A stretch of 64,000 bases of DNA from an uncultured Verrucomicrobiae bacterium. Lineage in GTDB: Bacteria; Verrucomicrobiota; Verrucomicrobiia; Chthoniobacterales; JAFAMB01. Below, one piece after another: positions 2,148 to 61,985 of the stretch. The notes beneath the pieces were generated by a model. It was not told where the DNA came from, did not search any database, and saw only the letters and a program-made list of their open reading frames with translations. A program made the translations under genes and the position numbers. Each line of letters opens with the position of its first letter. Position 1 is the stretch's first letter. The stretch lies in assembly GCA_963762565.1 (NCBI GenBank), contig CAVXLD010000001.1:544001-608000 (forward strand), read 5' to 3'.

Positions 2148-2186
2148 CTCCTGAACTCCTACAACTCCTTGAACTCCTGAACTCCT
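2148..2186. repeat. (GAACTCCT)n tandem micro-repeat, single arm
   Basis: ctcctgaactcctacaactccttgaactcctgaactcct just before ATG 2193; same unit as 37371-37567. Confidence 0.9.
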
Positions 2187-2192
2187 CTCTCT

Positions 2193-2948
2193 ATGAACTA
2201 CCGCATCATCGGAACGACGTTGCCGGTGCTCGAGCTCCAGATGAACCCTGGCGAAAGCGTATTCGCCGTTTCGGGTGAGCTTTCCTGGATGAACAGCGCG
2301 ATCACCATGAATACAACCACTCAATTGGGCGGTGGTGGTGGATTCTTTGGCGCATTGAAACGGATTGCCGGTGGAGGTTCATTATTTATGACCGATTACC
2401 GCGCCGAGGGCGGCGAAGGTCTCTTAGCCTTTGCCACTCGTGTACCAGGTAGCATCCTTTTCCTTGAGATCAGTCCAAGCAATACCTATCTGGTTCATCG
2501 TCACGGTTTTCTATGCGCTACTCACGGCGTCGAACTGAATGTTGCTTTTCAACAAACGCTCGGTGCCGGGATTTTCGGAGGGGACGGTTTTTTGCTCCAG
2601 AAGGTGGCCGGTACCGGTCACGCCTGGATTGAACTAGATGGCGAAGTGGTGACCTACGATCTGCAACCCGGGGAGACTCTACGGGTCCATCCCGGCCATG
2701 TAGGCATGTTCCAGGAATCCGTTGGTTTTCAGATAACCCGGGTGCCTGGCATCAAAAACATGCTGTTCGGCGGAGATGGAATTTTTCTAGCGGCCCTCAC
2801 TGGACCAGGCCGGGTTTGGCTTCAATCCCTGCCTCTATCGAATCTTGCGCATGCTCTTCAACCGTATTTGCCCAGAACAGTGGAACGCGTAGAAGACGCC
2901 GGCGCCGGCGCAGTGATCGGTTCGGTGATACGCGGACTGACGAAGTAG
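2193..2948 (+). CDS. TIGR00266/AIM24 family protein
   Basis: 'GESVFAVSGELSWM', 'GGGSLFMT', 'FGGDGFLLQKVAGTG', 'LTGPGRVWLQSLP'. Confidence 0.9.
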   Translation: MNYRIIGTTLPVLELQMNPGESVFAVSGELSWMNSAITMNTTTQLGGGGGFFGALKRIAGGGSLFMTDYRAEGGEGLLAFATRVPGSILFLEISPSNTYLVHRHGFLCATHGVELNVAFQQTLGAGIFGGDGFLLQKVAGTGHAWIELDGEVVTYDLQPGETLRVHPGHVGMFQESVGFQITRVPGIKNMLFGGDGIFLAALTGPGRVWLQSLPLSNLAHALQPYLPRTVERVEDAGAGAVIGSVIRGLTK

Positions 2949-3268
2949 GCGACGAAGCGAAAGGGCGAGACGGCGATGGGGCGAACCGTCGATGGGACGA
3001 TAGGCCCGGCAGGGCGAAAATCTCGGCGCGCCCTCGACGGATCATTCAGAACACATATGCACGCGCCGGATTTGAGCCGCGCCGTGCGGTCGCTAGCTCG
3101 CTGCTTCGATGATCCTGAGAACGAAGACGTGGTGGGCGTTGCAACGCGCACGCATGGCTCAAATCCTGCGCGTAGCCATCGATAGAAATGGCGCGTCGTG
3201 GGCGCGCCGAGATTTTCGCCCTACCGGTCCTATCGCCCTTTCGCCATTTCGCCCATTCGCCCATTCGC
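2948..3268. repeat. Nested inverted element: (GGCGA..)n arms around a GTAG-type REP doublet (REPIN/BIME-like)
   Basis: Core 3008-3225 GCAGGGCGAAAATCTCGGCGCG..CGCGCCGGATTTGAGCC plus its inverted copy; second copy at about 21071-21298. Confidence 0.9.
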
Positions 3269-3503
3269 AAAGCGCCCGACACTTGGCTATTCGCCCGAAG
3301 CGCGCTATCCTACCTCCGTTAACAACCTCCCGCGTGAACGAATTATGAATGGAATATTAGAAATCACGCGAACCTCGCATCTGTTCGGATAGCCAATCGT
3401 TCTGCCAAAAGTGGACTCTGCAGTTCTTTCCCACGTACAACGCTCCGGGGGCGAGCTGCGCGGTGATTTGGGCTGCCAAGCGAAACCCTAACTTTTGAAC
3501 TAC

Positions 3504-4292
3504 ATGCGAACCATCCCTATTCGGACACTTAAGGTCACGGAAAATACCGCTACCGGCTCCATGGTTGTGATCGGACTCACGATATCGCTGATACCGCTCG
3601 CGCTTCTCATCCTTCTTTTTACGTTACTCTATCCCGGGCTCAATGCCGACTCCCAAATCGCCAAAAATGCAGTTAAGGTCCACCAAGGCAGGGCTCACGG
3701 TGATGTGGTCTCAACGGTTGTGCTCAGTACGGCGAATTTGCCTATTGATTACGGCATCCCCGGTGGCAAGAAGTTCAGCTCCCAACGTTTGGCATTTGTA
3801 TTCGGAGAGTTTCACCACGAGAAACCTCTCCAGGTCTACTATCTGAAAGGTAGTCCGGAGATTGCCACGACAAATTGGGCTATCGATGCACTACCTTTGC
3901 GGTGGGGCACCTTCTGGGCTTTCGCCATGGTATTCGCGTTTGGTGCCCTGCTTGTCTGGGCGCTAACTGCCGTCGCCCTTTACAACGCAAAAAGTCTGCG
4001 CCGCACTGCCTCAAATCCGGTGGCGATCGAAGCCGCTATTTTCTCCGGCAACCAGGTAAAAAATAACCGCTACTGGAATTACACCTGGCAATTACCAAGC
4101 GGTAAGACTCGAAAGAACCAAGTTGCGTGGTCGCTGGAGCGAGAACCTTACTTCACGAATGAGGCAAAAGATCGAGCATTGGCCGTAGTGTGTGGAAACG
4201 GGCTCGCTCATTTGGTGGATGTCAATGGCCGCCCTTTTGATCTCGGTCCGTCTGAGCTTGAAGACATTGTGAATAAGCTGCGCTCCGCGTGA
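3504..4292 (+). CDS. Hypothetical membrane protein (2 TM segments)
   Basis: About 262 aa ORF with two hydrophobic stretches; no family recognised; start uncertain. Confidence 0.65.
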   Translation: MRTIPIRTLKVTENTATGSMVVIGLTISLIPLALLILLFTLLYPGLNADSQIAKNAVKVHQGRAHGDVVSTVVLSTANLPIDYGIPGGKKFSSQRLAFVFGEFHHEKPLQVYYLKGSPEIATTNWAIDALPLRWGTFWAFAMVFAFGALLVWALTAVALYNAKSLRRTASNPVAIEAAIFSGNQVKNNRYWNYTWQLPSGKTRKNQVAWSLEREPYFTNEAKDRALAVVCGNGLAHLVDVNGRPFDLGPSELEDIVNKLRSA

Positions 4293-4297
4293 GTTGA

Positions 4298-4518
4298 TCG
4301 TCCTCGTTCTCGTTCTCGTCGTCGTCCTCGTCCTTGGGTTTTAGCGGTTTGCATTCACTGCACGTTTTCATTTGCCGTGACGCCTCGCCTAAGTCCTAAC
4401 TCGATGGGCGACGAAAGCATGCGGTATGCGCTGGGCGTTGGACATCCCGAAGAAATCGAGGACGAGGACGACGACGAGAACGAGGACGAAGCGCTGTCGC
4501 GAACGGCGAACGGTGAAC
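4298..4518. repeat. Inverted (CTCGTY)n / (RACGAG)n hexamer element followed by GGCGAAC heptamers
   Basis: tcgtcctcgttctcgttctcgtcgtcgtcctcg (from 4298) versus cgaggacgaggacgacgacgagaacgaggacga (4457-4489). Confidence 0.9.
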
Positions 4519-4558
4519 AGTTAGTTTGATTTGTGAGCGATGCAGGCTAAAAGAGGGA

Positions 4559-5431
4559 ATGCCAGAGATTGGACTGATTCAGATGCGCTGTTCGGAGGAT
4601 CCAAGTGAAAACTTGGAGAACGCGATTGCTCTGATCCGAGATGCCGCAGCGCAGGGGGCCCAAATCATTTGCCTGCAAGAACTGTTTAGAACGGTCTACT
4701 TCTGCCAGGAAGAAAACCATAAATATTTTCAATACGCAGAGGCCATCCCGGGCCCAACGACGGAACGGTTGTCAACCTTAGCCAAAGAGTTGCAAGTTGT
4801 TATAGTTGCTTCGCTATTCGAACGGCGAGCCGCCGGTTTATATCATAACACTGCAGCGGTGATCGACGCGGATGGAAGCTTGCTCGGGATCTATCGGAAA
4901 ATGCATATCCCGGACGACCCGCTTTTTTATGAGAAGTTCTATTTTACTCCGGGTGATCTGGGATTCCGTTGCTGGCAAACTAAATACGCCCGTGTCGGTG
5001 TCTTGATCTGTTGGGATCAATGGTACCCAGAGGCAGCACGTTTGACCGCGTTACGCGGTGCTGAGATCATCTTCTATCCTACGGCCATTGGTTGGCATCC
5101 CTCTGAGAAAGCCGAGTTCGGCGAACGTCAACATTCGTCGTGGGAAACCGTCCAACGCGGGCACGCGATTGCAAACGGGTGTTACGTGGCCGTCCCGAAC
5201 CGGGTTGGACACGAGGCTCCGGCCGGCGGTGACGGTTTGGAGTTTTGGGGGCGAAGTTTTATAGCAGACCCGGCCGGGCAGATATTGGCCAGAGCTAACG
5301 GCGAGAAGCCGGAAGTACTCATTGCAAGCATTGACTCAAAAGCGCTGGAAACCCAGCGTGTTCATTGGCCTTTCTTGCGCGACCGCCGAATTGAAGCCTA
5401 CGGCGAACTAACTAAACGATTCATCGACTAA
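4559..5431 (+). CDS. aguB: N-carbamoylputrescine amidase (carbon-nitrogen hydrolase)
   Basis: Catalytic E/K/C motifs 'LQELF', 'YRKMHIPDDP', 'LICWDQWYPE'; adjacent to agmatine deiminase. Confidence 0.9.
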   Translation: MPEIGLIQMRCSEDPSENLENAIALIRDAAAQGAQIICLQELFRTVYFCQEENHKYFQYAEAIPGPTTERLSTLAKELQVVIVASLFERRAAGLYHNTAAVIDADGSLLGIYRKMHIPDDPLFYEKFYFTPGDLGFRCWQTKYARVGVLICWDQWYPEAARLTALRGAEIIFYPTAIGWHPSEKAEFGERQHSSWETVQRGHAIANGCYVAVPNRVGHEAPAGGDGLEFWGRSFIADPAGQILARANGEKPEVLIASIDSKALETQRVHWPFLRDRRIEAYGELTKRFID

Positions 5432-5460
5432 GCCTGCATTTATAAGCAATACAGGCTATG

Positions 5461-5494
5461 GCTGAATCATCCCGACTACGCGGGATGATTCAGC
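5461..5494. other. Perfect 14-bp hairpin between aguB and aguA
   Basis: GCTGAATCATCCCG-actacg-CGGGATGATTCAGC; no clear U-tract. Confidence 0.7.
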
Positions 5495-5524
5495 TTGCTG
5501 GTATAACTAGGGGAACAATTCGAA

Positions 5525-6574
5525 ATGACTGATTTTACTGCTGATTCACCTGCCGCTCTCGGCTACAAGATGCCGCCTGAATGGGCGCCGCACGAAGCGA
5601 CTTGGCTCTCGTGGCCGCGGCGGGACGGGATTAGTTTTCCTCATGCCTATGAAGAGGTAATTCCCGCTTTCGCGCAGATGATCGACGCTTTGCGCGGCTC
5701 CGAGAAAGTCAGGATCAATGTGATGGACGTGGATCATGAGAACGAGGTCCGATTCTTTCTGAAAGAGATCGATATTTCTCATGTCGAGTTCTTCATTATT
5801 CCCACCAATGAACCTTGGTGTCGGGATCATGGGCCGATCTTTGTCAAACGCGAGACCGATCCACCTCTGGCTGTTATCGACTGGAATTATAATGCCTGGG
5901 GCGGCAAATACCCTCCGTTTGATTTGGATGAGGTTGTTCCAACCAGAGTGGCAGAACAATTTAAGCTGCCGGTTTATTATCCCGGGCTTGTACTGGAAGG
6001 TGGATCCATCGATGTCAACGGAGCCGGAGCAGCTCTCTCCACCAAATCCTGTTTACTGAACCCGAACCGGAATCCGAAGCTCTCCCAAGAACAAATCGAA
6101 CAAGCGCTTCGAGATTATCTCGGCATCTCTGAGGTGTTATGGCTGACGGGCGGTATAGAAGGCGATGACACAGATGGTCATATCGACAACCTGACCCGTT
6201 TCGTGGCGCCAGATGTGGTGGTGACAGTGGTAGAAACGAATCAGGAAGATCCTAACTTTGAGCCGCTGCAGACGAACCTCTCGCTCTTAAAGAAGATGCG
6301 TTTATCCGGCGATTCGAAGCTCAACATTGTGCGGCTACCGATGCCCCCACGAATCCAGCGGGAAGACCGCCGGCTGCCCGCAAGTTATGCCAACTTTTAC
6401 ATTGGTAATAGCGTCGTGTTGGTACCCGCTTTCGACGCACCAACTGACAAGAAGGCAGTTTCTACCCTGAAGAAATGTTTTCCTGATCGAAAAATTGTGC
6501 CGATCGATTGCTGCCAGTTGGTCTGGGGGTTAGGAGCGTTTCATTGCCTGACCCAACAGCAACCGGCCATTTGA
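5525..6574 (+). CDS. aguA: Agmatine deiminase
   Basis: 'MPPEWAPH', 'WCRDHGP', 'EGGSIDVNG', 'DDTDGHID', 'ASYANFY', 'GAFHCLTQQQP'. Confidence 0.95.
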   Translation: MTDFTADSPAALGYKMPPEWAPHEATWLSWPRRDGISFPHAYEEVIPAFAQMIDALRGSEKVRINVMDVDHENEVRFFLKEIDISHVEFFIIPTNEPWCRDHGPIFVKRETDPPLAVIDWNYNAWGGKYPPFDLDEVVPTRVAEQFKLPVYYPGLVLEGGSIDVNGAGAALSTKSCLLNPNRNPKLSQEQIEQALRDYLGISEVLWLTGGIEGDDTDGHIDNLTRFVAPDVVVTVVETNQEDPNFEPLQTNLSLLKKMRLSGDSKLNIVRLPMPPRIQREDRRLPASYANFYIGNSVVLVPAFDAPTDKKAVSTLKKCFPDRKIVPIDCCQLVWGLGAFHCLTQQQPAI

Positions 6575-6575
6575 C

Positions 6576-6695
6576 GTATCGGCGTATGGGCGTGTCGGCG
6601 TGTGGGAGAAACGCTGGAGCAGCGACTACGCGCGACGCGAGTGGCCCGGCGGCGTGGTTCGGATGGGACCTATACGACCTATAGGACTTATAGGA
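6576..6695. repeat. (GGCGTRTS)n octamer and (GACCTATAG)n nonamer arms
   Basis: cgtatcggcgtatgggcgtgtcggcgtgtggg immediately after the aguA stop; gggacctatacgacctataggacttatagga; same families at 21950-22185. Confidence 0.8.
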
Positions 6696-6771
6696 GACAG
6701 CAGCGAAATGGGCCGGCTAGATCCGACCATTTTGCTGCCGTAGCCTGCGCCGCGGATCAATGCAGGTGCAT

Positions 6772-7614: not shown

Positions 7615-7662
7615 AGCCTGCATTTGTCAGAAAAGGCCTGCATTTCTGACAAATGCAGGCTA
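7614..7662. repeat. Perfect 20-bp inverted repeat spanning the lptF/G-dapF junction
   Basis: TAGCCTGCATTTGTCAGAAA-9 nt-TTTCTGACAAATGCAGGCTA. Confidence 0.9.
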
Positions 7663-13165: not shown

Positions 13166-13293
13166 AAATGACAGATGACAAATTGCAGATGACAGATGAC
13201 AGATTGTCGCGCTGCAAATTCGTGAGACTGTTGGCGTCTTCACAGATCGGAGACGATCGCATTTGTCATTCTGTCATTTGTCATCTGTCATTT
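13166..13293. repeat. Inverted (ATGACAR)n heptamer element
   Basis: aaatgacagatgacaaattgcagatgacagatgacagat ... atttgtcattctgtcatttgtcatctgtcattt. Confidence 0.92.
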
Positions 13294-14122: not shown

Positions 14123-14326
14123 GGCGTTTGGCGTTCGGCGTTTGGCGTTTGGCGTTCGGCGGTTGCGGTTAGGGAGGGCACGCGTCCTCGCGCGCCGTGA
14201 GGACGTGCCATCACCTTAAAGGTGTATTCTTGTTCCGCGATTACAGCATGTCCTCGACTTCGATAACAACGGATCGCGAGGACGCGATCCCTCCCGGACC
14301 ACCGCCAAACGCCGGACGCCAAACGC
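14122..14326. repeat. (GGCGTTY)n arms around a GGAG-tagged REP doublet
   Basis: GGAG-GGCACGCG-TCCT-CGCGCGCC (about 14172) and inverted GGAG-GGATCGCG-TCCT-CGCGATCC (about 14271-14294); fills the gap between two convergent stop codons. Confidence 0.9.
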
Positions 14327-20965: not shown

Positions 20966-20987
20966 GCGCGACACGGAAGCACTAAAA

Positions 20988-21360
20988 GTGAGAAGTGAGA
21001 AGTGAGAAGTGATTGGTGAGAGGCGTAACGGCGTGTGGGCGAAACGGCGAAAGGGCGACGCGCCGGGGTCGGTAGGGCGAAAAACTCGGCGCGCCCAAAG
21101 CCTTGTTTTTTCCCCTGACACGTCCGCGCCGGTTTTGAGCCGCGCCGTGCGGCAGGCTTGCCCATGACGCAACTCGACACAGACGCTGGATTTAGGAACA
21201 GCGATTGATGATGCCAGCCCCACGGCGCGGCTCAAATCCGGCGCGGAACCGTAATTGAAAATGGCCTATCCTCGGCGCGCCGAGATTTTCGCCCTACCGG
21301 TCCTGGCGACGCTCGCCCTATCGCCCCGTCGCCGTATCGCCCCGTCGCTACCTCTCACCG
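20988..21360. repeat. Second copy of the nested GTAG REP doublet, with GTGAGAA and GGCGA arms
   Basis: GGTAGGGCGAAAAACTCGGCGCG..CGCGCCGGTTTTGAGCC and inverted GGCTCAAATCCGGCGCG..CGCGCCGAGATTTTCGCCCTACC. Confidence 0.9.
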
Positions 21361-21416: not shown

Positions 21417-21947
21417 ATGTGGCTGTCGATTCTGATTCCGATCTTGCTCACCATATTGGTGATTGTCTGCGTCCTGCTGACATTAGTGATCCTCATGCAG
21501 AGGCCGCGCAGCGAAGGATTAGGGGCGGCATTCGGCTCAGGGATGACCGAGAACATTTTCGGCGCCCAGACCACGACTGTCCTCACTAAGGCGACGGTCT
21601 ATCTCGGCGGAACATTATTCGGGGTTACCCTTCTTATTACGATTTTGGTTGCCAGACAGAGTTCTGAGAGACGGGTCGGCCTCCTGGAAAATGAGCTAAA
21701 AAGCGCGAAACCGGCTGCGACCTCAACGGTGGCACCCAAAACGATCGCCGTCCCGAGCCCTGCGACTGCTTTGCCAAGCCCGACGGTAAACTCCTCCAGC
21801 ACTCCTGGGGCCAGCGTAACACCGGAAGCGTCCGCGTCGGCGCAGACTTCAGCAACCCCCGAAGTATCAGCGACTCCCGTGGTTTCGGCGACACCCCAAG
21901 TGACGCCTAGCCCGGTGGCATCTCCGAGCGCCACGGCCACACCGTAA
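21417..21947 (+). CDS. secG: Preprotein translocase SecG with a long S/T/P/A-rich tail
   Basis: 'VILMQRPRSEGLGAAFGSG..FGAQTTTVLTKAT'. Confidence 0.9.
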   Translation: MWLSILIPILLTILVIVCVLLTLVILMQRPRSEGLGAAFGSGMTENIFGAQTTTVLTKATVYLGGTLFGVTLLITILVARQSSERRVGLLENELKSAKPAATSTVAPKTIAVPSPATALPSPTVNSSSTPGASVTPEASASAQTSATPEVSATPVVSATPQVTPSPVASPSATATP

Positions 21948-21949
21948 CG

Positions 21950-22185
21950 AGGCGGATGGGCGTGTCGGCGTAACCGCATGCCCGGTAATTCTCAAGGGCT
22001 CGACCTTGGTGACAAATAAGACTTATGGGACCTATATGACTTATATGACGAAGGCCTTATAAGTCCCATGTGTCCTATAGAGTCCAGTCGCGCCGCAGGC
22101 TTGGCGAAGGCGGATCCCATCCGCAGTTAGCCCCAGTGGACGCCGACACGCCGATACGCCGACACGCCCACACGCCCATACGCCT
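21950..22185. repeat. Nested octamer (GGCGTGTC / CACGCCGA) and nonamer (GACYTATRN) inverted arms
   Basis: ggcggatgggcgtgtcggcg ... gacttatgggacctatatgacttata / tataagtcccatgtgtcctata ... cgccgacacgccgatacgccgacacgcccacacgcccatacgcc. Confidence 0.85.
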
Positions 22186-23773
22186 AGTGCTCCCCGTCTC
22201 AGCGATTGCCATCGCCTGCGCGCTCGCCGGCTGCGATTCGCCTGGTTCGCGCGCTGACCTTGTGGTTCTCAATGGAGCAGAACCCGAGTCGATCGATCCG
22301 GCCGAGATTACCGGTCAGCTTGATGGACGCATCGCTTACGCCCTATTCGAAGGGTTACTACATTTTGATCGTTTTGGGCATCCTCAACCTGGCATTGCGC
22401 AGTCCTGGGATATCTCGTCCGATCGCCGGACTTATACCTTTCACCTTCGGCCGGAAGCCAAATGGAGCAACGGTGATCCCGTTACAGCAGACGATTTTGT
22501 AGCTTCCTGGAGACGAGAGCTATTACCAGCGACCGCCTCAGAATATGCCTATATTTTCTATCCAATTCGGAATGCTGAAGCTTTTAACGACGGCACCGCA
22601 AAAGACTTTTCCACGGTCGGTGTTAAGGCACAGGATCGGCAGACGCTGCAGGTAGAACTGGAGAATCCGACTCCTTACTTCCTGGATCTTTGTTGTTTCT
22701 TCACCTATTTGCCGGTCCACGTGCCATCCATCCAGAAGTTCGGTGACGACTGGTTCAAGCCAGGCAACTTGGTCAGCGACGGGCCGTTCTTGCTTAAGGA
22801 ATGGAAACTGAACTATCGGATGCGGCTAAAAAAGAATCCCACTTTCTGGGATGCGAAGAACGTCCAGTTGGAGACCATCGATATTTTGCCGATCGAGAAC
22901 GCGATTACCGCGTACAACTTTTATGCCTCCAAAGTGGCGGACCTGATTCTCGACAAAGGATTAACGCCGCCTTCGCTTATCCCCGAACTAAAAGCTCGCT
23001 CCGATTTCCACGCCGCTCCATTCCTGGGCGACTATTTCATTCGATTCAACGTAACGCGTAAGCCATTTTCGGATCCTAGGGTACGACAGGCGTTTGCTAT
23101 GGTTATCGACCGGGAACGGATAGTCCGGAAAATTACTCAGGCGGGCGAACATCCTGCTTATTCGTTTACCCCGCCGGGGACTGGGGGCGATTATCAGCCG
23201 CCAAATATGTTTGGTTTGAATCCAAGCCGAGCCAGGGAACTGTTAGCGGACGCCGGTTATCCTGGGGGAAAAGGGTTCCCCCCTATTTCTTATCTCTACG
23301 ACAATAAGAAACTAAACGAAGATATTGCCGTTGAAATTCAGAGCATGCTTTCGCAGGAGCTGGGCGTCCATGTGGAGCTCGTGAAGCAAGAATGGAAGGT
23401 TTATCTCAACTCAACAAATCGCCTTGATTACGATTTTTGCCGGTCGAGTTGGATTGGCGACTATGATGACCCAAATTCGTTCCTCGAGTGTTTCGTCACG
23501 AATAGCGGCAACAATCGGACGGGCTGGAGCAACCGAACTTATGATGAGCTGCTCGACCGAGCAGCCAAAGAAGCAGATCCGCAGACTAGGTTAAGAATCC
23601 TGGCCCAGGCCGAAGACATATTGCTCAACCAAGGGACGCCTATCTGTCCGCTTTATTTTTACATGGGAATCCAGATTTACGATGGAACCAAATTCGGCGG
23701 AATTGAGCCGAACCTCCTCGATAATCATCCGTTCCGTGAGATCTATCGCGTGAGCGGAGAGAGCGCAAAGTGA
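22136..23773 (+). CDS. Oligopeptide ABC substrate-binding lipoprotein (OppA-like, family 5)
   Basis: Lipobox 'LAGC', 'EPESIDP', 'YTFHLR..AKWSNGDPVTADDF', 'WIGDYDDP'; start uncertain (22136 or 22187). Confidence 0.9.
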   Translation: MDADTPIRRHAHTPIRLVLPVSAIAIACALAGCDSPGSRADLVVLNGAEPESIDPAEITGQLDGRIAYALFEGLLHFDRFGHPQPGIAQSWDISSDRRTYTFHLRPEAKWSNGDPVTADDFVASWRRELLPATASEYAYIFYPIRNAEAFNDGTAKDFSTVGVKAQDRQTLQVELENPTPYFLDLCCFFTYLPVHVPSIQKFGDDWFKPGNLVSDGPFLLKEWKLNYRMRLKKNPTFWDAKNVQLETIDILPIENAITAYNFYASKVADLILDKGLTPPSLIPELKARSDFHAAPFLGDYFIRFNVTRKPFSDPRVRQAFAMVIDRERIVRKITQAGEHPAYSFTPPGTGGDYQPPNMFGLNPSRARELLADAGYPGGKGFPPISYLYDNKKLNEDIAVEIQSMLSQELGVHVELVKQEWKVYLNSTNRLDYDFCRSSWIGDYDDPNSFLECFVTNSGNNRTGWSNRTYDELLDRAAKEADPQTRLRILAQAEDILLNQGTPICPLYFYMGIQIYDGTKFGGIEPNLLDNHPFREIYRVSGESAK

Positions 23774-24095
23774 GAGGTGATTAGGGATTGGTGATTGGTG
23801 GGGCGAGGCTCCCGAACGTCCTAAAGGGGTTCGCAAAGGATACTGATTCTTTTCGCAGATGCGTCGCCCTGCGCCTTTACGCTCGCCGAGCCGTGCCCAG
23901 CGCACTGACCTCGTCACAACTGCCGACCACAATCGAGTCAGCAACCGAACCGCTGCAAATGACTACACCTAGCAACGCGCTGGGACCGGCTCGGCAAGCG
24001 TAATGACTCGGCACATTCATTCACCGGGGAAAACTAGCGGCCTTGCGCACCTCCCCAGTCCGTTCGGGAGCCTCGCCCCACCAAATTACTGCTTA
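23770..24095. repeat. GTGATTG arm plus a REP doublet of the GGCGAGGC..GCCGAGCC type
   Basis: GGTGGGGCGAGGCTCCCGAACG (23797) ... CGTTCGGGAGCCTCGCCCCACC (24082); inner GCCGAGCCG/CGGCTCGGC. Confidence 0.88.
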
Positions 24096-35527: not shown

Positions 35528-35753
35528 CCTGGAGGGGAGTTGCTTTGTAGCATGGCAGCTCTGCAGGTTGGAGGGGAGCCGCTTTGTAGTGTGGCAACTC
35601 TGCAGGTCGGCAGCAGGCGGCTCCCGCGAACGGCCCCACGCGTCACCATCGCCCAGCGCACCCTGGAGGGGAGCCGCTTCGTAACGTGGCAGCTCTGCAG
35701 GTCGGCAGCAGGCGGCTCCCGGGAACGTCTCCAGGCGTCGCCATCGCCCAACG
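35528..35753 (+). repeat. Left REP array of the RAYT (2.5 units of about 95 bp)
   Basis: GGAG-GGGAGCCGC-~34 nt-GCGGCTCCC units starting at about 35531 (partial), 35570 and 35665. Confidence 0.92.
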
Positions 35754-35807
35754 TTTTCTGGTTTTTAATCGTTTGACGCTGAATATAACACACAATATTT
35801 ATAGGTT

Positions 35808-36269
35808 GTGATATTGCCAGAACGCGAGCACCCGCCACACCTAACATCTTTAGATCTTAAGGCGGTCGTTCTGCTCCTGACCATCTGTACAAAAAATCGC
35901 GGCAAGATTTTGGCGCACGACTGGGTCCACGAATTGGTTCGCGAGGCTTGGACCCTCTGCGCTGATTATCCAGTCGGCCGATACGTGATAATGCCGGATC
36001 ATATCCATGCGTTTGTTGGCGAGAGCAATCTAGCAAGGTATCCGTTAGCCAACTGGGTCGCCGCTTGGAAATCCTTCGTAGCGCTGCGCTGGCCATCGCC
36101 CAAGGACAAGCCAATTTGGCAGCGGAGCTTTTGGGATCGCCAAATCCGCAGCAGTGACGCGTACGATCAGAAGTGGTTGTATGTGCGGAACAATCCCGTC
36201 CGACATGGGTACGTTACGAACCCGGATGATTGGCCGTTCCAAGGATCCATGAATAGTCTATCGTGGTAG
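35808..36269 (+). mobile_element. rayT: REP-associated tyrosine transposase (HUH Y1, TnpA-REP)
   Basis: 'TICT', HUH motif 'IMPDHIH', 'WQRSFWDRQIR', 'YVRNNPV', 'DWPF'; inverted REPs on both sides. Confidence 0.92.
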
Positions 36270-36286
36270 AGAAAAAGCCAAATCCG

Positions 36287-36410
36287 CGATGGGTTATGGC
36301 GTGCCAGGGGTTATTCCCGGGAGCCGCCTGCTGACAACCGATAGAACTAGAGACCTACAAAGCGGCTCCCCTCCGACCGATAGCCCCTCCAGGCCGCGGG
36401 CCGCGACGGG
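36287..36410 (-). repeat. Right, inverted REP of the RAYT
   Basis: Reverse complement reads ggaggggagccgctttgtaggtctctagttctatcggttgtcagcaggcggctcccgggaa. Confidence 0.92.
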
Positions 36411-37370: not shown

Positions 37371-37567
37371 AGGAGTTCAGCGAGTTAGGAGTTCAGGAGT
37401 TCAAGGAGTTACAGGAGTTCAGGAGGGCGGACAACCGCGAATTCAGACAAATATCAGGCAGAGCTGAACCGCAGATGGACGCGGATTTAATTCTTGTCCG
37501 TTCGCGTGAATTCGAGGTTAAGAATTTCCTCCTGAACTCCTTGAACTCCTCGAACTCCTGAACTCCT
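37371..37567. repeat. Inverted (AGGAGTTC)n element with an inner AACCGCGAATTC/GAATTCGAGGTT pair
   Basis: aggagttcag..aggagttcaggagttcaaggagttacaggagttcaggag ... ctcctgaactccttgaactcctcgaactcctgaactcct. Confidence 0.92.
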
Positions 37568-37588
37568 TTAGGATTTGGCCAATTTCGC

Positions 37589-38646: not shown

Positions 38647-39144
38647 GTGAGCAGACTATTTACCGACTTGGAAGAAAGGGACGTGCTTGCTCTGGCGATT
38701 TCACTCGAAGAAGAAGACAGTCGCATCTATCGAGATTACGCCGAGAGGATGAAAGAAAAGTATCCGGAAACCGCGTCGATTCTGCAATCGATGTCCGAAG
38801 TGGAACTCTCTCATCATCGCCGTCTGATTGAGGTTTTCCAAGGCCGGTTCGGAGATCATGTTCCTTATTTTCGACGACAGGACGTTAAGGGATTTATCAA
38901 ACGCAAACCAATCTGGTTGAATATCCACCTTAAACCTAAGCGGGTGCGCCAGGAGGTGATGGGTATGGAAGCAGAAAGCCGCCGTTTCTATCAGCAGGGT
39001 ATGGAGCAGGTTAAGTCCCCCGAAGTGCGTGTGCTCTTGGAAGAGCTCGCCGCCGTCGAAGAAGAGCACCAAGACATTTTTGTGGAAGAGGTCAGAAAGA
39101 AAAAGAAATCAGGAGCGCTGGAGAAGGAAGACGAAAGGAGCTAG
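38647..39144 (+). CDS. Ferritin/rubrerythrin-like domain resembling the N-terminus of iron exporter MbfA; membrane domain absent
   Basis: 'VLALAISLEEEDSRIY', 'E..H', 'E...FY', 'LAAVEEEH'; stop codon lies inside a GGAGCTA repeat. Confidence 0.75.
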   Translation: MSRLFTDLEERDVLALAISLEEEDSRIYRDYAERMKEKYPETASILQSMSEVELSHHRRLIEVFQGRFGDHVPYFRRQDVKGFIKRKPIWLNIHLKPKRVRQEVMGMEAESRRFYQQGMEQVKSPEVRVLLEELAAVEEEHQDIFVEEVRKKKKSGALEKEDERS

Positions 39145-39168
39145 GAGCTAGAATCTAGCTCCTTTCCC

Positions 39169-39741: not shown

Positions 39742-39964
39742 TCGTCCCAAAGGGACTTGAGGACTCAGCCTGGGGTTTAACCCCAGGTACTGGTTTAACA
39801 ATACCCAGCCCTGAAGGGGCGGTAGAACCGTTGCATAGAATGTCGATGGGTTAGCCAAAAAAGCGTCGAGTACAACAATCTTCCGCCCCTACAGGGCGGG
39901 CCGTTATGCGAATGGATACCAGGGGTTAAAACCCCTGGCTGAGTCCTTTCATCCCTTCGGGATA
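39742..39964. mobile_element. MITE-like multi-hairpin inverted element
   Basis: gtcccaaagggac..ggactcagcctggggtttaaccccagg..ccctgaaggggcgg / ccgcccctacaggg..ccaggggttaaaacccctggctgagtcc..tcccttcggga; lies between convergent genes. Confidence 0.8.
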
Positions 39965-50980: not shown

Positions 50981-51156
50981 GGAGCAGTGAGAGGTGATTA
51001 GTGATTGGTGATTTGTGATTGGTAGAGGAGCTAGGATCTAGGAGCTAGGAGTCTTACTGTTCTAGTCGATCCTCTTCGCGATCTTCGCGGCCTTGTTGTG
51101 GTTGTATTTTTTTTTGCGCTTTTTGTGCCTTTTTGCGGCTATTCTTTCTGGCTTTG
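50981..51156. repeat. Composite spacer of stacked micro-repeat arms
   Basis: GTGATTR, GGAGCTA, CTTCGCG and TTTTTGYGC units in the same order as 52588-52783. Confidence 0.85.
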
Positions 51157-55228: not shown

Positions 55229-55242
55229 TCAGTTTAGAATTG

Positions 55243-55341
55243 ATTTACCACAGAGACACGGAGGACACCGAGACAGATCTTCCAAATGGGTTAGATCTTG
55301 GGGTGTCCGATCTTTGCGCACTCTGTGTCTCTGTGGTGAAT
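55243..55341. repeat. Inverted CACAGAGACAC element
   Basis: tttaccacagagacacggaggacaccgaga ... tctttgcgcactctgtgtctctgtggtgaa. Confidence 0.88.
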
Positions 55342-55354
55342 TTTGGTTTTTCAA

Positions 55355-57781: not shown

Positions 57782-57948
57782 GGTGAAAGGTGAGAAGTGA
57801 AAGGTGAAAGGAAAGTAGTCAGTAGGTCAGTAATCAGTAACAGACAGGAGCTAGGAGTTAGCAGTCGTATTTCTTTGCGATCTTTGCACTCTTTCGCGGC
57901 TATTCCTTCTTGGCTATCGGCTATTGGCTATTGGTCATGCGCGCAGCG
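57782..57948. repeat. Composite spacer of stacked micro-repeat arms
   Basis: GGTGAAA/GTGAGAA, TCAGTAR, GGAGCTA, CTTTGCG and GGCTATY units. Confidence 0.8.
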
Positions 57949-60387
57949 CTATTCGCGCAGTGCTGTTACAGGGTTAATTCGGATGGCACGTAGCGCCGGC
58001 AACAAGCACGCGAGTAACGCAGCGAAAGAGAGCACGACGATGCTGGCGGCAATCGTGATTGGATCGTTACCGCTAACGCCATAGAGCAGACTTCCCAGGA
58101 ATTGGCTCAAGACCGACGCAGTGAGTACACCGGCAACGACTCCTATCCCAACCATTTTGAAGCCCTGTTTCAGGACGAGGTTCACGATATGATGCCGCAA
58201 GGCGCCTACCGCAATTCGCACCCCAATCTCAGGAGTTTGCCGAGTGACTGAATAAGCCAAAACTCCGTACAAGCCCACGGCGGCCAAAAGTAACGCAGTC
58301 CCGGAGAAGATGCTCACTAAGAGCGCAGCTAATTGTCGCGTCGAAAATCGCTGCGAAATGAAGTTAGAGAAATTGTCGACTCTGGCCAACGGCACGTCAG
58401 GATCGATTGAAGCAACGGCTTGTCGTAAAGCCGGTAGTAATCCTGACGGATCTCGGGCTGATCGGACAAGTAAGATTTCGTAATGAGTAAACTGCTGATA
58501 AAAAGGAAAATAACCGCTGAACTTGGGCGAGTTATTTGGTCCGCCATGTCGCATGTCTTGTACAACACCGACGATCGTCAACCGCTTCTGTGCCATGTAA
58601 GAGCCGGGCAAATCTATTTGTTTGCCGATGGCACTCTGCCCGGGGAAAAAAATATCGGCCAGCCCGCGATTGACAATGACCACCCCTTGCTTATTGCGAG
58701 TGTCACCGTAATTAAAATCTCGTCCCTCCACGATCGAGGCTTTTAGCGTACGGAAATAGCCGGGTGAAATGTTTTGGCCGTTCAAAGTTGGTTCATGTCC
58801 GGGCTCAACCGGCGGCTGAGAAGGAACGATGAACGGCGAATATTCCCCGCCCTCCGAGTTAACAAAGGGTGGGTCATCGCTTAGCGCTGCCGCTGTCACG
58901 CCAGGCACCTGCGACACTTTTTCTAGGACGGATTTGAAGAAGGCGTCGGCTTGCGATTGTTCTTTATACTTCGCGTTCGCCAGGTTGATCTCCACAGCGA
59001 GCACGTTTTGGGGTTCGAACCCTAGCGGGATATTCTGCGCAGCCTCGAAGCTCCGGACGAGCAATCCAGTACCAATTAACAAGACGCAAGCAAGCGCTAC
59101 TTGTCCTGTCGTCATTATTGATTGTGTCCGGGTTCGCTGCGGGCCCGCAGTCCGGTTTCGGCTGCCGGCACTCCTTAGCACCGTCGCTACATCAGTCTTC
59201 GACGAGATAAAGGCCGGGAAGAGCCCGGATAGAAGAGCGGTAAGGCTAATAGCGCCGCCACAGAACAAAAGCGCTTGGGGACTAAGAGAAAGATCAGGGA
59301 CGCGAATTATATCTGCTGGGCTGATCAGTTTTATCAATTCGATCGCCGCTAACGCTATCGGTATCCCAACCAGTCCGCCCACGAGCGAAAGAAGCGTACT
59401 CTCGATGATTAAGTGACCAATCAAGCGGAAGCGAGAGGCTCCTATGGCAGCTCGAATGGTTAGGTCCCGTTGTCGATCCGATGCTCTGGCAACAATAAGA
59501 GTCGCTACGTTTGTGCTCGAAAGCAGAAGCAGGAAAGCGGCAGCGGCGCCCAAGACCCAAAGAGTCGACGCATAATCCGATACCTCGATTTGCTGGGCGC
59601 TCTCCACGTGAACGCCGTAGCCTTTATCTTCCGGGTATCGAGCAGCTAAGTTATCTGCGATTACCTTAAGATCCGCCTCAGCTTGCGCCGGTGTGACGCC
59701 CTCCTTCAGGCGCCCCCAACCCATCAGAAATCGGTTGTCACGAGCCCTCCACGTGTCCCAGCCTGCAATCACGTCAGCTGTATTTAACGGCACCAGAATT
59801 TTTACAGGTTCTCTGGACTCGGTCTCGAGTGCTTCTACCACTCCGATAACCTGAAAACCGGCGCCATTCAGAACGATATTTTTCCCAAGAATGTTGGGAT
59901 CGGCATTAAAGCGATTCCTCCAAAACGGTTCCGTCAGGACCGCGACCCGCGGGCCGCCCGGCTGGTCTTCCTCGGACGTAAACGGTCTCCCTAAAATGAA
60001 AGGGAGGCCATAAGCTTGAAATGCGCTTGCCGTAGCAAAGGCAGCCTTGACCTGTTCTGTTCTGCCTCCGGCACTCAGGCCAATCGAATCCCAATGTTCC
60101 AGCGCGAACGAAGCGAATGAGTGTTGCGCTCGGCAGAAATCAAGAAAATCAGGATAGTCAAAGCTCCCGTAATAGACGTTTTGTGCCGGGTTCGGCGTAA
60201 GCACTGTTACTAACCTGTCCGGCTCCGGATACGGCATGGGTCTCAGCAGCACGGTATCGATTAGACTAAAGATGGCAGTGTTTGCCCCGATACCGAACCC
60301 GAGCACGAGCACTGCGGTGATGGTGAAGCCGGGCGACTTTAGCAAAAGTCGGAGGCTGTAGCGCACAGATGCCAGGAAGCCGTGCAT
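57949..60387 (-). CDS. ADOP-like permease copy A
   Basis: Same motifs; likely start 'MHGFLASVRYSLR'. Confidence 0.92.
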   Translation of the reverse strand: MHGFLASVRYSLRLLLKSPGFTITAVLVLGFGIGANTAIFSLIDTVLLRPMPYPEPDRLVTVLTPNPAQNVYYGSFDYPDFLDFCRAQHSFASFALEHWDSIGLSAGGRTEQVKAAFATASAFQAYGLPFILGRPFTSEEDQPGGPRVAVLTEPFWRNRFNADPNILGKNIVLNGAGFQVIGVVEALETESREPVKILVPLNTADVIAGWDTWRARDNRFLMGWGRLKEGVTPAQAEADLKVIADNLAARYPEDKGYGVHVESAQQIEVSDYASTLWVLGAAAAFLLLLSSTNVATLIVARASDRQRDLTIRAAIGASRFRLIGHLIIESTLLSLVGGLVGIPIALAAIELIKLISPADIIRVPDLSLSPQALLFCGGAISLTALLSGLFPAFISSKTDVATVLRSAGSRNRTAGPQRTRTQSIMTTGQVALACVLLIGTGLLVRSFEAAQNIPLGFEPQNVLAVEINLANAKYKEQSQADAFFKSVLEKVSQVPGVTAAALSDDPPFVNSEGGEYSPFIVPSQPPVEPGHEPTLNGQNISPGYFRTLKASIVEGRDFNYGDTRNKQGVVIVNRGLADIFFPGQSAIGKQIDLPGSYMAQKRLTIVGVVQDMRHGGPNNSPKFSGYFPFYQQFTHYEILLVRSARDPSGLLPALRQAVASIDPDVPLARVDNFSNFISQRFSTRQLAALLVSIFSGTALLLAAVGLYGVLAYSVTRQTPEIGVRIAVGALRHHIVNLVLKQGFKMVGIGVVAGVLTASVLSQFLGSLLYGVSGNDPITIAASIVVLSFAALLACLLPALRAIRINPVTALRE

Positions 60388-60592
60388 AAGTTCCAGGGGG
60401 ATTCCGTGAAGTAGATGGCAGGTTACATGCCAGGTGGAGGGGGGAAGAGGTGATTGGTGATTGGTGATTGGTGGGAGCACCGCGTCAGGCCGAACTGTGG
60501 GTGGACGGTAACTAGGGATCAGTTCGGGGCTGGTGGTCGCCGTATAGCGGTTTGAAGGCAGGTGCGTGCCGCGCGGATGTCGGTTGTGTGGA

Positions 60593-60637
60593 CAACCGTC
60601 TCAAAATGAGAAACGGCGTCTCAACTTGAGACGGTTG
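60593..60637. promoter_or_regulatory. Candidate operator: two GTCTCA-N3-TGAGA(C) palindromes 20 bp apart
   Basis: GTCTCAAAATGAGAA (60598-60612) and GTCTCAACTTGAGAC (60618-60632) in the divergent gap. Confidence 0.5.
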
Positions 60638-60669
60638 CCGAGACAGCCGAGTAACGTAGTGTGCTGGTC

Positions 60670-61275
60670 ATGCCAAGGTTTTTGCTGGGCATTGTCTTTC
60701 TGTTTATGGCCGTTAATTTCGATCCTGTTGTGCATGCCGAAGACAACCGTACAATCCCGAGTACTGGGGGAGAATATTTCGACCACCGCGTGGAAATTCC
60801 GGTACCGGCCTTTGCGCAGGATGATCCGCGGTGGAGCAATGTTCGGCTTGGGCCATCTACGGACACGCTGGGCGACCAGGGCTGCGCGGTGACCTCGGCC
60901 GCGATGGTCGTCGCTTTTTACGGGATCAAAACCGATCCGCAGCAGCTGAATAGTTTCCTTACAAAAGCAGGCGGACTCTCCGATGATGGACTTATTCAGT
61001 GGAGCCGGGTGCCGGCGATCGCGCCCTCCCATTTAGAATTGGCTTACAATGGCTACGCGGCGTACGACCTGATCGACTCGAATTTGCTGACAAAAAATCC
61101 CGTCATTGCGATCATCCATCTGCGGGACGGCGCTTATCATTTCGTTGTGATCGTGGGTAAGGAAGGCCGCAACTACTTGATCCGTGATCCGGCGGCTCCT
61201 GTTTTTCGCCGACCCTACCCGCTGTCCTACCTGACCGATCGGATTGACGGTATCTGCTTTTTTCGGACGATATAG
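60670..61275 (+). CDS. C39-like (papain-fold) peptidase, secreted
   Basis: Signal peptide, 'FAQDDPRW', 'GCAVTSAAM', 'HFVVIVG', 'IRDP'. Confidence 0.85.
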   Translation: MPRFLLGIVFLFMAVNFDPVVHAEDNRTIPSTGGEYFDHRVEIPVPAFAQDDPRWSNVRLGPSTDTLGDQGCAVTSAAMVVAFYGIKTDPQQLNSFLTKAGGLSDDGLIQWSRVPAIAPSHLELAYNGYAAYDLIDSNLLTKNPVIAIIHLRDGAYHFVVIVGKEGRNYLIRDPAAPVFRRPYPLSYLTDRIDGICFFRTI

Positions 61276-61289
61276 CGGGACTCGCCATA

Positions 61290-61372
61290 GGCGTTTGGCG
61301 TTTGGCGTTTGGCGTTTGCGTTTGGCGTTCGGCGTTCGGCGTTTGGCGTTTGGCGTTTGGCGTTCGGCGTCG
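61290..61372. repeat. (GGCGTTY)n heptamer tract of about 11 units
   Basis: ggcgtttggcgtttggcgttt..ggcgttcggcgttcggcg. Confidence 0.95.
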
Positions 61373-61689
61373 GAAATAGCAAATCGCAAATAGCAGATGC
61401 GTTCTGTACGCGATGAATGAATGGCGGTGCCGACACCTTTATGCATCGTCGCGCTCGGTAGGGGGCGATAAAAAAAGGGGTTTCGCCTGGAATAAAAGAG
61501 TTCCCAGGAATCTCGGAACAACGACAGATCCTTCTGCGCAGGATTCGCGCAAAATGCATCACATCCGGCTAGCGACGCAGTTTGCAGGTAAAGCAATTGT
61601 AATCCTCGCCGATACAATTTGACCTACCCCGCCGTCCAATGAACCAAGCAAATAGCACACAAAAAATGCTCCGCAACGCGGCGTTGTTA

Positions 61690-61985
61690 CATCGGCTATC
61701 GGCTATTGGCTATCGGCTATTCGGAGCGAGCTTCAGGCGAGTCTCCGCGGTAAACCAAGGTGGAATAGCTCGTTTGTCGAAATACTGCCAACTTCCACGC
61801 GGCAAAGACCCGAAGATGAATACAAAATTTCACAACAAGGCATCAAAGGCCGCAGTGCAGCGAGACAGAGGATCCACAATACGGAAAGATCACAAAGGAC
61901 ACAAAGACTGAAACTGCAAATCGAATTCCTAAGTTCAGTCCTTGTGACCTTTCCGTATTGTGATCTCTGGTTCCGGTCTTCGGGA
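61690..61985. repeat. GGCTATY heptamers plus an inverted CACAAAG-type element
   Basis: cggctatcggctattggctatcggctat; cagaggatccacaatacggaaagatcacaaaggac / gtccttgtgacctttccgtattgtgatctctg. Confidence 0.8.

Follow-up and report, generated by a model that had tools for sequence, protein, structure and literature searches.

Inverted arrays of 6-10-nt tandem repeats in intergenic DNA of a soil Chthoniobacterales genome: probable remnants of hairpin cassettes with two classes of cargo gene

Introduction

Among the long simple repeats of bacterial genomes, heptamers are the commonest. The short tandemly repeated repetitive (STRR) sequences of heterocystous cyanobacteria comprise several tandem heptamer families in the intergenic DNA of one genome; these are direct arrays, for which we know of no systematic inverted pairing or enclosed genes. 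The intervening sequence (IVS) of 23S rRNA is an insertable, host-tolerated element whose inverted flanks pair into a long stem, with a PF05635 four-helix-bundle gene in the loop; it is found in helix 25 or 45, from which RNase III excises it. Here we analyse the tandem arrays of 6-10-nt units found in the intergenic gaps of a 64,000-nt stretch of DNA (the window; C1:544001-608000, assembly GCA_963762565.1, contig CAVXLD010000001.1) from an uncultured Chthoniobacterales bacterium, whose genome (G000) is a soil metagenome-assembled genome of 6.12 Mb in 15 contigs with 54% G+C. Many of the arrays form an inverted pair, a left and a right arm around a core, which we call a cassette. We put at about 0.6 the probability that the cassettes are decayed selfish IVS-like hairpins of two cargo classes, overlaid by repetitive extragenic palindromic (REP) repeats and REP-associated tyrosine transposases (RAYTs).

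As in the IVS, a PF05635/TIGR02436 gene lies between stem-forming inverted flanks at six of eight loci of this genome; unlike the IVS, the cassettes stand between protein genes (there is no rRNA in the window), have stems of tandem 7-8-nt units and are mostly gene-less. The PF05635 protein family appears under the name '23S_rRNA_IVP' in the available part of one source (10.1101/2024.02.27.582315).

Intergenic heptamers, GGGAATC in Xanthomonas and GGGGAYT in Nostoc, were described by Rehm et al. (2015; PMC4692102), whose available text gives 70-75 convergent pairs per Xanthomonas genome, with the G-rich strand sense at most 50 bp after stops and antisense at most 50 bp before open reading frames (ORFs). 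The present arrays share with them the tandem 7-nt intergenic units, the inverted pairs, the strand rule and a repeat type that is kept between species with varying length (PMC4692102). In contrast to the single Xanthomonas family, which is read as a G-quadruplex (G4), more than a dozen families of 6-10 nt occur here, most of them unable to form G4; their variant order is conserved, and they come with nested cores and cargo genes, whereas the available part of PMC4692102 reports no link to a mobile element or gene family. The single-family architecture and the strand rule are already published for Xanthomonas, and the cargo link and the multi-family vocabulary were not found in the literature searched; nor was a description of arms plus cargo as a class, subscription journals lying outside that coverage.

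The TAACTGA repeats of marine Beggiatoaceae are heptamers beside start codons, often without a ribosome-binding site; in forward orientation they give stops in all frames, so that they overlap an ORF only at its very end, and their scatter over phyla suggested transfer (MacGregor, 2015; PMC4679880, available part). Intergenic heptamers at start codons and stops in three frames recur here. The TAACTGA arrays differ in being direct (one inverted case), of a single unit and mostly upstream, with no cargo gene described in the part of PMC4679880 available. REP sequences and their hairpin-forming doublets (REPINs) are high-copy intergenic palindromes, gene-less and non-autonomous, that evolve within genomes, according to the accessible portions of Bertels & Rainey (2011; PMC3116915) and Di Nocera et al. 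(2013; PMC3733652). This genome and the window also contain a REP/RAYT-like system, but tandem arms stood beside none of ten Y1 transposase loci, and the genes between arms are not tyrosine transposases.

Results and discussion

Excess, pairing and polarity of the arrays

Tandem Repeats Finder (TRF) returned 68 rows in the window; merging left 46 arrays of period 6-10, and 25 of these reached a score of at least 40. An earlier inspection of the same DNA from its letters alone (the sequence-only reading) had claimed about 25 repeat-filled intergenic gaps with more than ten unit families; the arrays were borne out, although in about 20 gaps, and all 12 named families were located in the window (Table 1). 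A repeat search of the window found 46 inverted pairs spaced at most 500 nt apart, and the 351-nt cassette at 2940-3290 had a predicted fold of -203 kcal/mol, as compared with -139 ± 6 in shuffles (z = -10.5).

Genome-wide, TRF gave 4479 merged arrays, with period 7 the commonest (1542). Canonical units numbered 1065, and most of the dozen major families lacked G-runs. For periods 5-12, a score of at least 40 was reached by 2165 arrays, versus 45 in an order-3 Markov shuffle of the genome, and a score of at least 50 by 841 versus none. Pairing was determined for the 1911 arrays of period 6-10 with a score of at least 40, a partner being the reverse complement of two units at most 500 nt away. 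An inverted partner was present for 901 of them and a direct partner for 33, while the same probes displaced by 5 kb gave 43 inverted and 48 direct. Inverted pairs concentrated at spacings below 300 nt and direct pairs did not. The pattern is real and strongly non-random; the left-arm and reverse-complement right-arm architecture claimed from the letters held for the 901 paired arrays, at a frequency far above chance. A clustered regularly interspaced short palindromic repeat (CRISPR) array was ruled out, as partners were inverted (901) and not direct (33) and units were 6-10 nt long.

Since turning a palindrome round leaves its arm order unchanged, X...rcX and rcX...X (rcX being the reverse complement of unit X) are different objects. 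Short cassettes kept one polarity per family, the left arm being AAATGAC in 36/36, GGTGATT in 23/23, AGCTAGG in 26/26 and AAGTGAG in 19/19 cases, and their first arm contained more G than C in 216, less in 39 and as much in 104. Unpaired arrays retained this polarity: X-type arrays lay in the left half of the gap in 147 cases versus 32, and rcX-type arrays in the right half in 149 versus 30. Relative to the neighbouring gene, this means that the purine-rich strand follows stop codons and the pyrimidine-rich strand precedes start codons.

Arms recurring as defined sequences

The copy number of the arms had a median of 4.4 units, left and right, with a narrow arm length of about 30 nt, and left and right copy numbers were moderately correlated (Spearman 0.45, 372 pairs). 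The order of unit variants within an arm was conserved across loci: one 26-nt AGGAGCT-type arm string had 53 exact occurrences, or 106 allowing at most one mismatch, and seven further arm strings had 16-115 exact occurrences each. In some families, conserved non-repetitive termini or outer stems extended beyond the arrays. Because variant order and arm strings recur across loci, independent local slippage would not yield the arms, and the claim that ordinary slippage is insufficient was upheld by arms of about 30 nt with the same unit-variant order at 50-100 or more loci. Cassette cores were mostly shorter than 300 nt, a few paralogous cassette copies were 72-86% identical, and traits resembling miniature inverted-repeat transposable elements were present, namely terminal inverted repeats of about 30 nt, small size and gene-less cores.

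The arrays might instead have grown in place by local replication slippage and been mirrored by intrastrand template switching at hairpins, the cassettes being immobile and the cargo merely located there. A slippage-type origin is assumed for the Xanthomonas and Nostoc heptamers, and the moderate correlation between arms, the inward polarity of unpaired arrays and the uniqueness of 283 of 344 cores agree with it. Growth in place predicts locus-specific units, whereas a dozen families have a conserved variant order at many loci, and the conserved termini and outer stems of several families also speak against it; together with the evidence on both sides given below, we consider it rather unlikely.

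Cargo genes between the arms

The sequence-only reading had named four-helix-bundle (TIGR02436) and GxxExxY genes as partners of such arms in other genomes and had noted that neither lies in the window. Both statements were correct for this genome: the window has neither gene, and elsewhere full-length elements enclose a small ORF at TIGR02436 and GxxExxY loci. TIGR02436, which corresponds to PF05635 ('23S rRNA intervening sequence protein') with weak Avd matches in Pfam and NCBIfam, had eight loci above cut-off, six of them between inverted 7-8-nt arrays, and the arm units (GGTGATT, GTGAGAA, AGCAGTA/GTAAGCA, ATAGCCA and TGGAGTGG) are major families of the window. GxxExxY (TIGR04256 = PF13366, a PD-(D/E)XK family) gave 11 profile matches above and three below cut-off, at 12 loci, two of which were in two pieces. 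Ten of the 12 lay between inverted 8-10-nt arrays (eight by TRF rows on both sides and two by flank sequence), one was single-armed and one ambiguous; the arm units were CACAGAGA, CGCAAAGGA, CGCAGATTA, CACAAAGAT, CGCGAATAGA and others. Cargo proteins 83% identical had a common arm unit, and those 37-67% identical had different units. Since the same arm types enclose the cargo genes elsewhere in the genome, the CRCAGATTA, CGCAAAG, CACAGAGA and CACAAAG hairpins of the window belong to the GxxExxY arm class and its heptamer arms to the four-helix-bundle class.

E22, D62 and K74 were invariant in nine full-length GxxExxY proteins, leaving the D...E-x-K motif intact. The predicted model (predicted local distance difference test, pLDDT, 93.9) had weak fold matches, all to PD-(D/E)XK nucleases (Cas4, lambda exonuclease and Hjc among them); in Foldseek it had no match at E ≤ 0.001, and a sequence search found no solved structure. 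A survey of the PD-(D/E)XK superfamily lists GxxExxY, in the part available, as 'unknown' with multiple transfers (PMC3424549). In viral contigs, a search for close relatives of the GxxExxY protein found none. This nuclease is the sole catalytic candidate for cassette movement. The four-helix-bundle cargo at C11:15956-16444 had two solved relatives by sequence, PDB 2rld and 2gsc, with five chains per entry. The latter is XCC0516, a PF05635-type protein of Xanthomonas campestris, a species for which GGGAATC inverted heptamer pairs have been published. An all-against-all blastp of the 55 ORFs between arms revealed no third cargo family; ten of the 20 between-arm ORFs submitted to NCBIfam and Pfam had no family and are probably not genes.

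The protein encoded between a pair of arms could have those arms as its cognate recognition arrays. Each GxxExxY paralogue would then recognize and cut hairpins or cruciforms of its own CRCRRAG-type unit, and each four-helix paralogue would bind its own heptad array. Each entry of the two solved relatives has five chains, and each arm about 4.4 units; we regard the idea as doubtful. If it were true, the cassettes would be hairpin-targeted homing elements with 'programmable' tandem-word ends, the gene-less ones being both relics and landing sites, and cognate arms would explain the re-use of sites, the nesting and the co-variation of arm and protein.

Arm motif and nuclease across phyla

Relatives of the CACAGAGA-armed GxxExxY protein, with 59-80% identity, were collected from 80 genomes, which by record title belonged to Verrucomicrobiota, Bacteroidota, Ignavibacteriota-type, Chloroflexota, Calditrichota, Lentisphaerota, Proteobacteria and others. 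Each flank measured at least 400 nt at 75 loci. At 56 of the 75, at least two CACAGAG-like units upstream were combined with at least two CTCTGTG-like units downstream, as compared with 0 and 4 for scrambled motifs and 15 for the reverse arrangement, while exact motifs gave 29 loci versus 6. Scrambled motifs were used as the control and not mismatched partners, because different loci have the same arm motif. Unit length was 8, 9 or 10 nt across the relatives, with a constant CACAGAG core. On this sequence comparison, the CACAGAG arm type is seen to travel with its GxxExxY orthologue across phyla, and the linkage of one arm motif to one nuclease lineage in many phyla is hard to reconcile with growth in place.

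Cargo decay and turnover of sites

Cargo genes have decayed within retained arms in three cases, two of which now have short gene-less cores, and some of the gene-less cassettes, which had been proposed to be non-autonomous, are therefore demonstrably deleted forms of gene-carrying ones. In the first case, a 160-nt core (C10:371496-371655) within CGCAAAAAG arms corresponds to the C-terminal 40 residues of GxxExxY (E = 5e-10). The second is at a site orthologous to C1:1345239 of this genome. There, the arms in genome G002 are of the ATGACAA type and surround a TIGR02436 gene of which, at the contig end, the 3' part is present (profile positions 45-109, E = 2e-4). G003 shares the right arm and the flank, its left arm belongs to the same family, and its core consists of no more than the last ~100 nt of the gene; identity between the two is about 90% from this shared gene end onward. 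In the third case, at the C11:15956 site, G001 lacks about 240 nt from the middle of the gene, while G003 and G005 have the whole cassette at 79-80% identity.

Alignment of orthologous gaps among congeners, which are about 80% identical in the flanking genes, revealed presence/absence and replacement polymorphism. In the gcvH gap, ATGACAR arms were found in four species, this one and three congeners; copy numbers varied, the cores had diverged, and one arm contained an additional insertion. In the GGCGTTY gap, the left arm was kept in the congeners around three different cores (both gaps in Table 1). The gap at 39145-39168 was filled differently in each of four genomes: in G000 by a minimal AGGAGCT hairpin, in G004 by a cassette with CGCAAAG arms, in G003 by a palindrome of REP-like type and in G002 by a hybrid. 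At 47457-47506, G000 has no cassette and G003 a complete CGCAAAG cassette whose core is missing from G000; at this single empty/filled pair, no target duplication was readable. At the C11:15956 site, G002 has AGTAATC arms and a cargo 46% identical, with flanks 77-82% identical, and this replacement cassette starts at the same junction, 2-3 nt past the stop codon. In contigs of other soil metagenomes, whole units were missing from two arrays, 9 nt at 16537 from a 9-mer array (one other run) and 8 nt at 21337 from an 8-mer array (two runs), and a palindrome had a 31-nt deletion (6750-6782; three other runs). Such whole-unit changes between near-identical strains, and copy numbers that vary at orthologous gaps, are as expected from growth in place; a whole unit of arms plus core missing from an orthologous gap is not.

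Short-read contigs of other soil metagenomes break off at many cassettes in 2101-22100, for example between 2892 and 3199, and the congener genomes consist of 350-790 contigs each. Contig joints with sides of 20-27 nt mostly derived from cassettes of other loci with the same arms and were not used.

Position relative to genes and translation

With gap classes taken from a crude longest-ORF gene map, arrays were found in 601/2008 co-directional, 262/765 convergent and 207/770 divergent gaps, and a terminator role is disfavoured because they are equally common in all orientations. G-U-compatible arm mismatches numbered 127 on the sense versus 106 on the antisense strand, with transversions equally frequent; since there is no excess on the sense strand, we see no sign of RNA-level selection for pairing. 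There was no signal for a terminator or an RNA-level role.

An array occurred at most 400 nt past the stop of 1105 of the 4206 ORFs of at least 150 aa. It lay over the stop codon in 196 and started 0-14 nt past it in 236 (432 of the 1105 together); for example, the TAG at 16407-16409 falls in the first unit of a TAGGAGC array, the repeat supplying the stop. Arrays ending 0-12 nt ahead of an in-frame start were mildly in excess (164 versus 98 displaced controls). The inward-reading unit contained a stop codon in 225 of 253 7-mer cassettes, as compared with 60 of 253 for its reverse complement and 140.5 ± 7 for letter-shuffled units; among distinct 7-mer units the numbers were 25/33 inward versus 11/33 for the reverse complement. 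A stop in a 7-mer unit gives stops in all three frames after three units. ATG in outward-reading units was found, by period, in 1/253, 0/48, 0/44 and 0/15. We read the stop and ATG pattern as probably reflecting a filter on the families able to spread harmlessly, in line with the argument of MacGregor (2015; PMC4679880) on TAACTGA, and not a purpose-built device.

These positions also bear on a function for the host, with the hairpins acting as insulators, as sites of RNA processing or termination, or as binding arrays for cargo proteins in the role of regulators. It would fit that orthologous gaps retain their arm family although the cores drift, that units avoid ATG toward starts and give stops from genes, that arrays lie on or less than 15 nt past so many stops and are mildly enriched just ahead of starts, and that most Xanthomonas repeats are transcribed, as stated in the available part of Rehm et al. 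(2015; PMC4692102). The equal frequency in all gap orientations argues against a terminator and the missing sense-strand excess of G-U-compatible mismatches against pairing in RNA; one gap is filled in four unrelated ways in four congeners, another has no cassette in G000, and genomes rich in cargo genes are poor in arrays. A host function is, on balance, improbable.

The REP/RAYT repeats

Several high-copy palindromic families occur in the genome (14-mers in 200-430 copies), which has ten loci above the Y1_Tnp cut-off, and two RAYT-like genes (C7:408772 and C3:712536) each lie between copies of their own REP. Cassette-type arrays were present beside 0/10 Y1 loci, seven of which had no TRF row and three only weak rows of about two copies of other units. 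In the window, the ORF at 35808-36269 encodes 153 aa with a sub-threshold IS200-like Y1_Tnp match (E = 2e-4, 21.9 bits versus a cut-off of 23) and is surrounded by GGAGGGGAGCCGCTT copies at 35531, 35570 and 35665 on the plus strand (a 95-nt tandem duplication) and at 36360 on the minus strand; GGAGGGGAGCCGCTT REP 14-mers occur about 370 times in the genome. Judged by sequence, this ORF is likely a divergent RAYT with its own REP family. A 1044-aa TIR-NACHT-TPR protein (antiphage/STAND-type architecture; 32505-35639, minus strand) adjoins the locus.

The sequence-only reading had placed REP doublets in the centre of the cassettes. This is the case for some, such as 2957-3268 and 21022-21348 with their two common inverted-repeat layers, but not for all, and the doublets come from separate repeat systems, one of which flanks the RAYT-like gene in the window. 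REP-type cores common to several cassettes go with many different arm families, and because of this the arms and the REPs seem to act as independent layers, the central REP doublets being independent tenants of the cassettes.

That the tandem-armed hairpins are themselves REPIN-type elements, mobilized in trans by a RAYT like the REP doublets of Pseudomonas or Escherichia coli, would agree with the ten Y1_Tnp loci, the high-copy REPs, the two RAYT genes flanked by their own REPs, the window ORF between inverted GGAGGGGAGCCGCTT copies and the REP-like palindromes that form the cores of some cassettes. We consider it very improbable, as none of the Y1 loci has cassette-type arrays, REP cores are paired with many arm families, and the genes between arms are TIGR02436 and GxxExxY and not Y1 transposases.

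The window's Acido-Lenti-1 match (39919-39964) resembles the REPs, with GTCCC..GGGAC and CCAGGC..GCCTGG hairpins, that flank the RAYT-like genes at C7:408772 and C3:712536, and by this resemblance the Acido-Lenti-1 'RNA motif' may be a REP element.

Probable origin of the cassettes

The sequences show how the arms are built and oriented, that cargo genes are tied to them and have decayed, that sites turn over and that whole units are gained or lost; that the cassettes spread selfishly is our inference. As we propose it, a full-length cassette would consist of a small cargo gene between two mirror-oriented arms of about 30 nt, each of about 4.4 units of 6-10 nt with the purine-rich arm first; arms of 7-8-nt units would carry the four-helix bundle of the 23S-rRNA-intervening-sequence/Avd family, and arms of 8-10-nt CRCRRAG-type units the GxxExxY nuclease. 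Such cassettes would have multiplied in this Chthoniobacterales lineage and mostly lost their cargo by internal deletion, leaving arms around short drifting cores, and the arms would have stayed recognizable through constraint or through continual homogenization by whole-unit slippage and, probably, arm-to-arm correction. Sites would be re-used, new hairpin repeats, including unrelated palindromes of the REP/RAYT type, entering cassettes and whole cassettes being replaced, and therefore nesting and side-by-side stacks would arise. Deletions between adjacent cassettes would leave 'unpaired' arms that still point inward, and the surviving unit families would be those safe for translation, with inward stops in all frames and outward units almost without ATG. 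The claim that the elements insert into each other is consistent with the nesting and the refilled cores; the alternative also offered by the sequence-only reading, a shared mechanism that writes arms at gene boundaries, found no direct support.

Several results weigh against a selfish, cargo-driven origin. About half of the arrays have no detectable partner, which is where the claimed two-arm architecture fell short. The cores of short cassettes were singletons by blastn in 283 of 344 cases, and hidden Markov models of both cargo families, built from this genome, matched the six-frame translations of the 344 cores once, for GxxExxY; no TIGR02436 remnant was found in them (best E = 0.75), and shuffled cores had no matches either. 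Given these singletons and the single recognizable remnant, only a few cassettes have been shown to descend from gene-carrying ones, and for all others such descent is an assumption. The C11:15956 cassette, being as old as the genus and evolving like its flanks, resembles a resident gene more than an active mobile element, and no insertion event with a target-site duplication was seen. The partners with the same arms encode a four-helix-bundle or a PD-(D/E)XK protein and not a known transposase, no transposase was associated with the arrays, and no cargo was identified for the 6-mer TCGTCC and 8-mer GGCGAAAG classes. We know of no catalytic activity of the four-helix-bundle protein.

The distribution among genomes points the same way. 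TIGR02436 was present in 75 and GxxExxY in 67 of 101 sampled genomes of the class, and array density was compared with cargo counts in 20 genomes, 40 kb each, the samples being small and the genomes related. Nine genomes with both families (2-11 copies each) had 0-3 arrays, six with neither had 0-1 and three with TIGR02436 only had 0-2, as compared with 17 in 40 kb of this window and six in G012, which belongs to the same family. The abundance of gene-less arrays does not follow from cargo genes alone, and the flood of such arrays is a feature of this genus and family; a density that is lineage-specific and unrelated to cargo gene counts also agrees with growth in place.

This genome ties heptamer repeats to two widespread families of small proteins, the four-helix bundle of the 23S-IVS/Avd type and GxxExxY PD-(D/E)XK: the arm class is matched to the gene, the arm motif follows the nuclease across phyla and gene-less hairpins can be deleted cassettes. 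As they break short-read assemblies at nearly all gene boundaries, supply stops to about 5% of the larger ORFs and sit on start codons, the cassettes affect annotation and probably expression.

Features of the window

Table 1. Tandem arrays, cassettes and associated features in the window, and positions of the 12 unit families
Position	Strand	Feature	Remarks
2148..2186		Unpaired pyrimidine-type array, CTCCTGAA x4.6 (TRF)	Ends 6 nt short of the ATG (2193) of an AIM24-family gene
2957..3268		Nested cassette, outer GGCGAAAG-type 8-mer arms 2957-3000/3229-3268	Two inner inverted-repeat layers conserved with 21022-21348
4298..4489		6-mer cassette, TCGTCC x6.2/CGAGGA x5.5, core 122 nt	Begins 5 nt past stop codon
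6575..6790		Arrays CGTATCGG x3.4 and GGACCTATA x3.3	Palindrome 6741-6790
13168..13293		Cassette, ATGACAG x5.3/CTGTCAT x4.7	Occupies gap from gcvH to next gene
14123..14326		Cassette, GGCGTTY x6.1/AAACGCC x3.4	REP-like inverted repeat 14167-14300 inside, at least 10 more copies in genome
16407..16750		Composite gap: TAGGAGC x2.9 over stop codon, GGTGAGG units, GAACGCTAGT x2	Remainder: GGAGTGGA/CCACTCCGT pair, GGAGGGGAGCCGCTT REP copy, CGCC-rich array
20986..21348		AAGTGAG x3.9, then GGCGAAAC-type arms 21022-21058/21313-21348	Inner two layers as in 2957-3268
21947..22188		Cassette, GGCGKRTS arms 21947-21980/22140-22188	Inner 9-mer pair, GACTTATRG type, 22016-22090
23776..24084		GGTGATT x3.6, 2 nt past stop codon	Enters 42-nt REP-like inverted repeat 23795-23836/24043-24084
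35531..36374	+	RAYT-like ORF 35808-36269 with flanking GGAGGGGAGCCGCTT copies	
37371..37568		Cassette, AGGAGTTC x6.6/GAACTCCT x4.7, between divergent genes	CGCGAAT-type inner pair in core
39136..39168		Minimal hairpin AGGAGCTAGGAGCTAG-AAT-CTAGCTCCT	Fills 24-nt gap (39145-39168)
39745..39964		40-nt inverted repeat	Right arm is the window's sole Rfam match, Acido-Lenti-1, 39919-39964
45834..45980		Gene-less cassette, CGCAGATTA 9-mer arms	Arm type also encloses GxxExxY gene at C1:643974
48288..48498		Gene-less cassette, CGCAAAGG arms, terminal motif AAAAYCTCACGCAAAG	Arm type goes with GxxExxY genes
50994..51137		Stack of non-complementary arrays: GTGATTA x3.9, AGGAGCT x3.7, pyrimidine-type TTTTTGCGCC x2.8	Upstream of FtsX-permease paralogue; similar stacks at 52601-52780 and 57782-57934
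55249..55335		Gene-less cassette, CACAGAGA arms	Arm type encloses GxxExxY at C1:116916 and orthologues in many phyla
57782..57934		Stack GGTGAAA x4.3, AGTAGTC x3.6, TCTTTGCAA x2.6, TTGGCTA x3.6	
60449..60473		Unpaired GGTGATT x3.6	5' edge of minus-strand permease gene
61290..61960		GGCGTTT x11.7, AAATAGC x3.1, ATCGGCT x4.3	CACAAAG-armed hairpin (~61880-61960)
37371/37529		AGGAGTTC family	
13168/13260		ATGACAR family	
14123/14303, 61290		GGCGTTY family	
16407, 39136, 51026		GGAGCTA family	
20986, 23776, 50994, 52601, 60449		GTGATTG/GTGAGAA family	
4298/4457		RACGAG family	
6575, 21947/22140		GGCGTRTS family	
6666, 22016		GACCTATAG family	
45834/45956		CRCAGATTA family	
48297/48475		CGCAAAG family	
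55249/55321		CACAGAGAC family	
57910, 61691		GGCTATY family	

Toward its right end, the window contains five tandem MacB/FtsX-type permease paralogues on the minus strand (48551-60480), four of 808-843 aa and one of 476 aa. Of the gaps separating these paralogues, three hold a similar stack, a GTGATT- or GGTGAAA-type array, AGGAGCT, a CTTYGCGAT-type array and then a TTTTTGCGC- or GGCTATT-type array, and because of this similarity the repeat stack was probably duplicated along with the permease genes.

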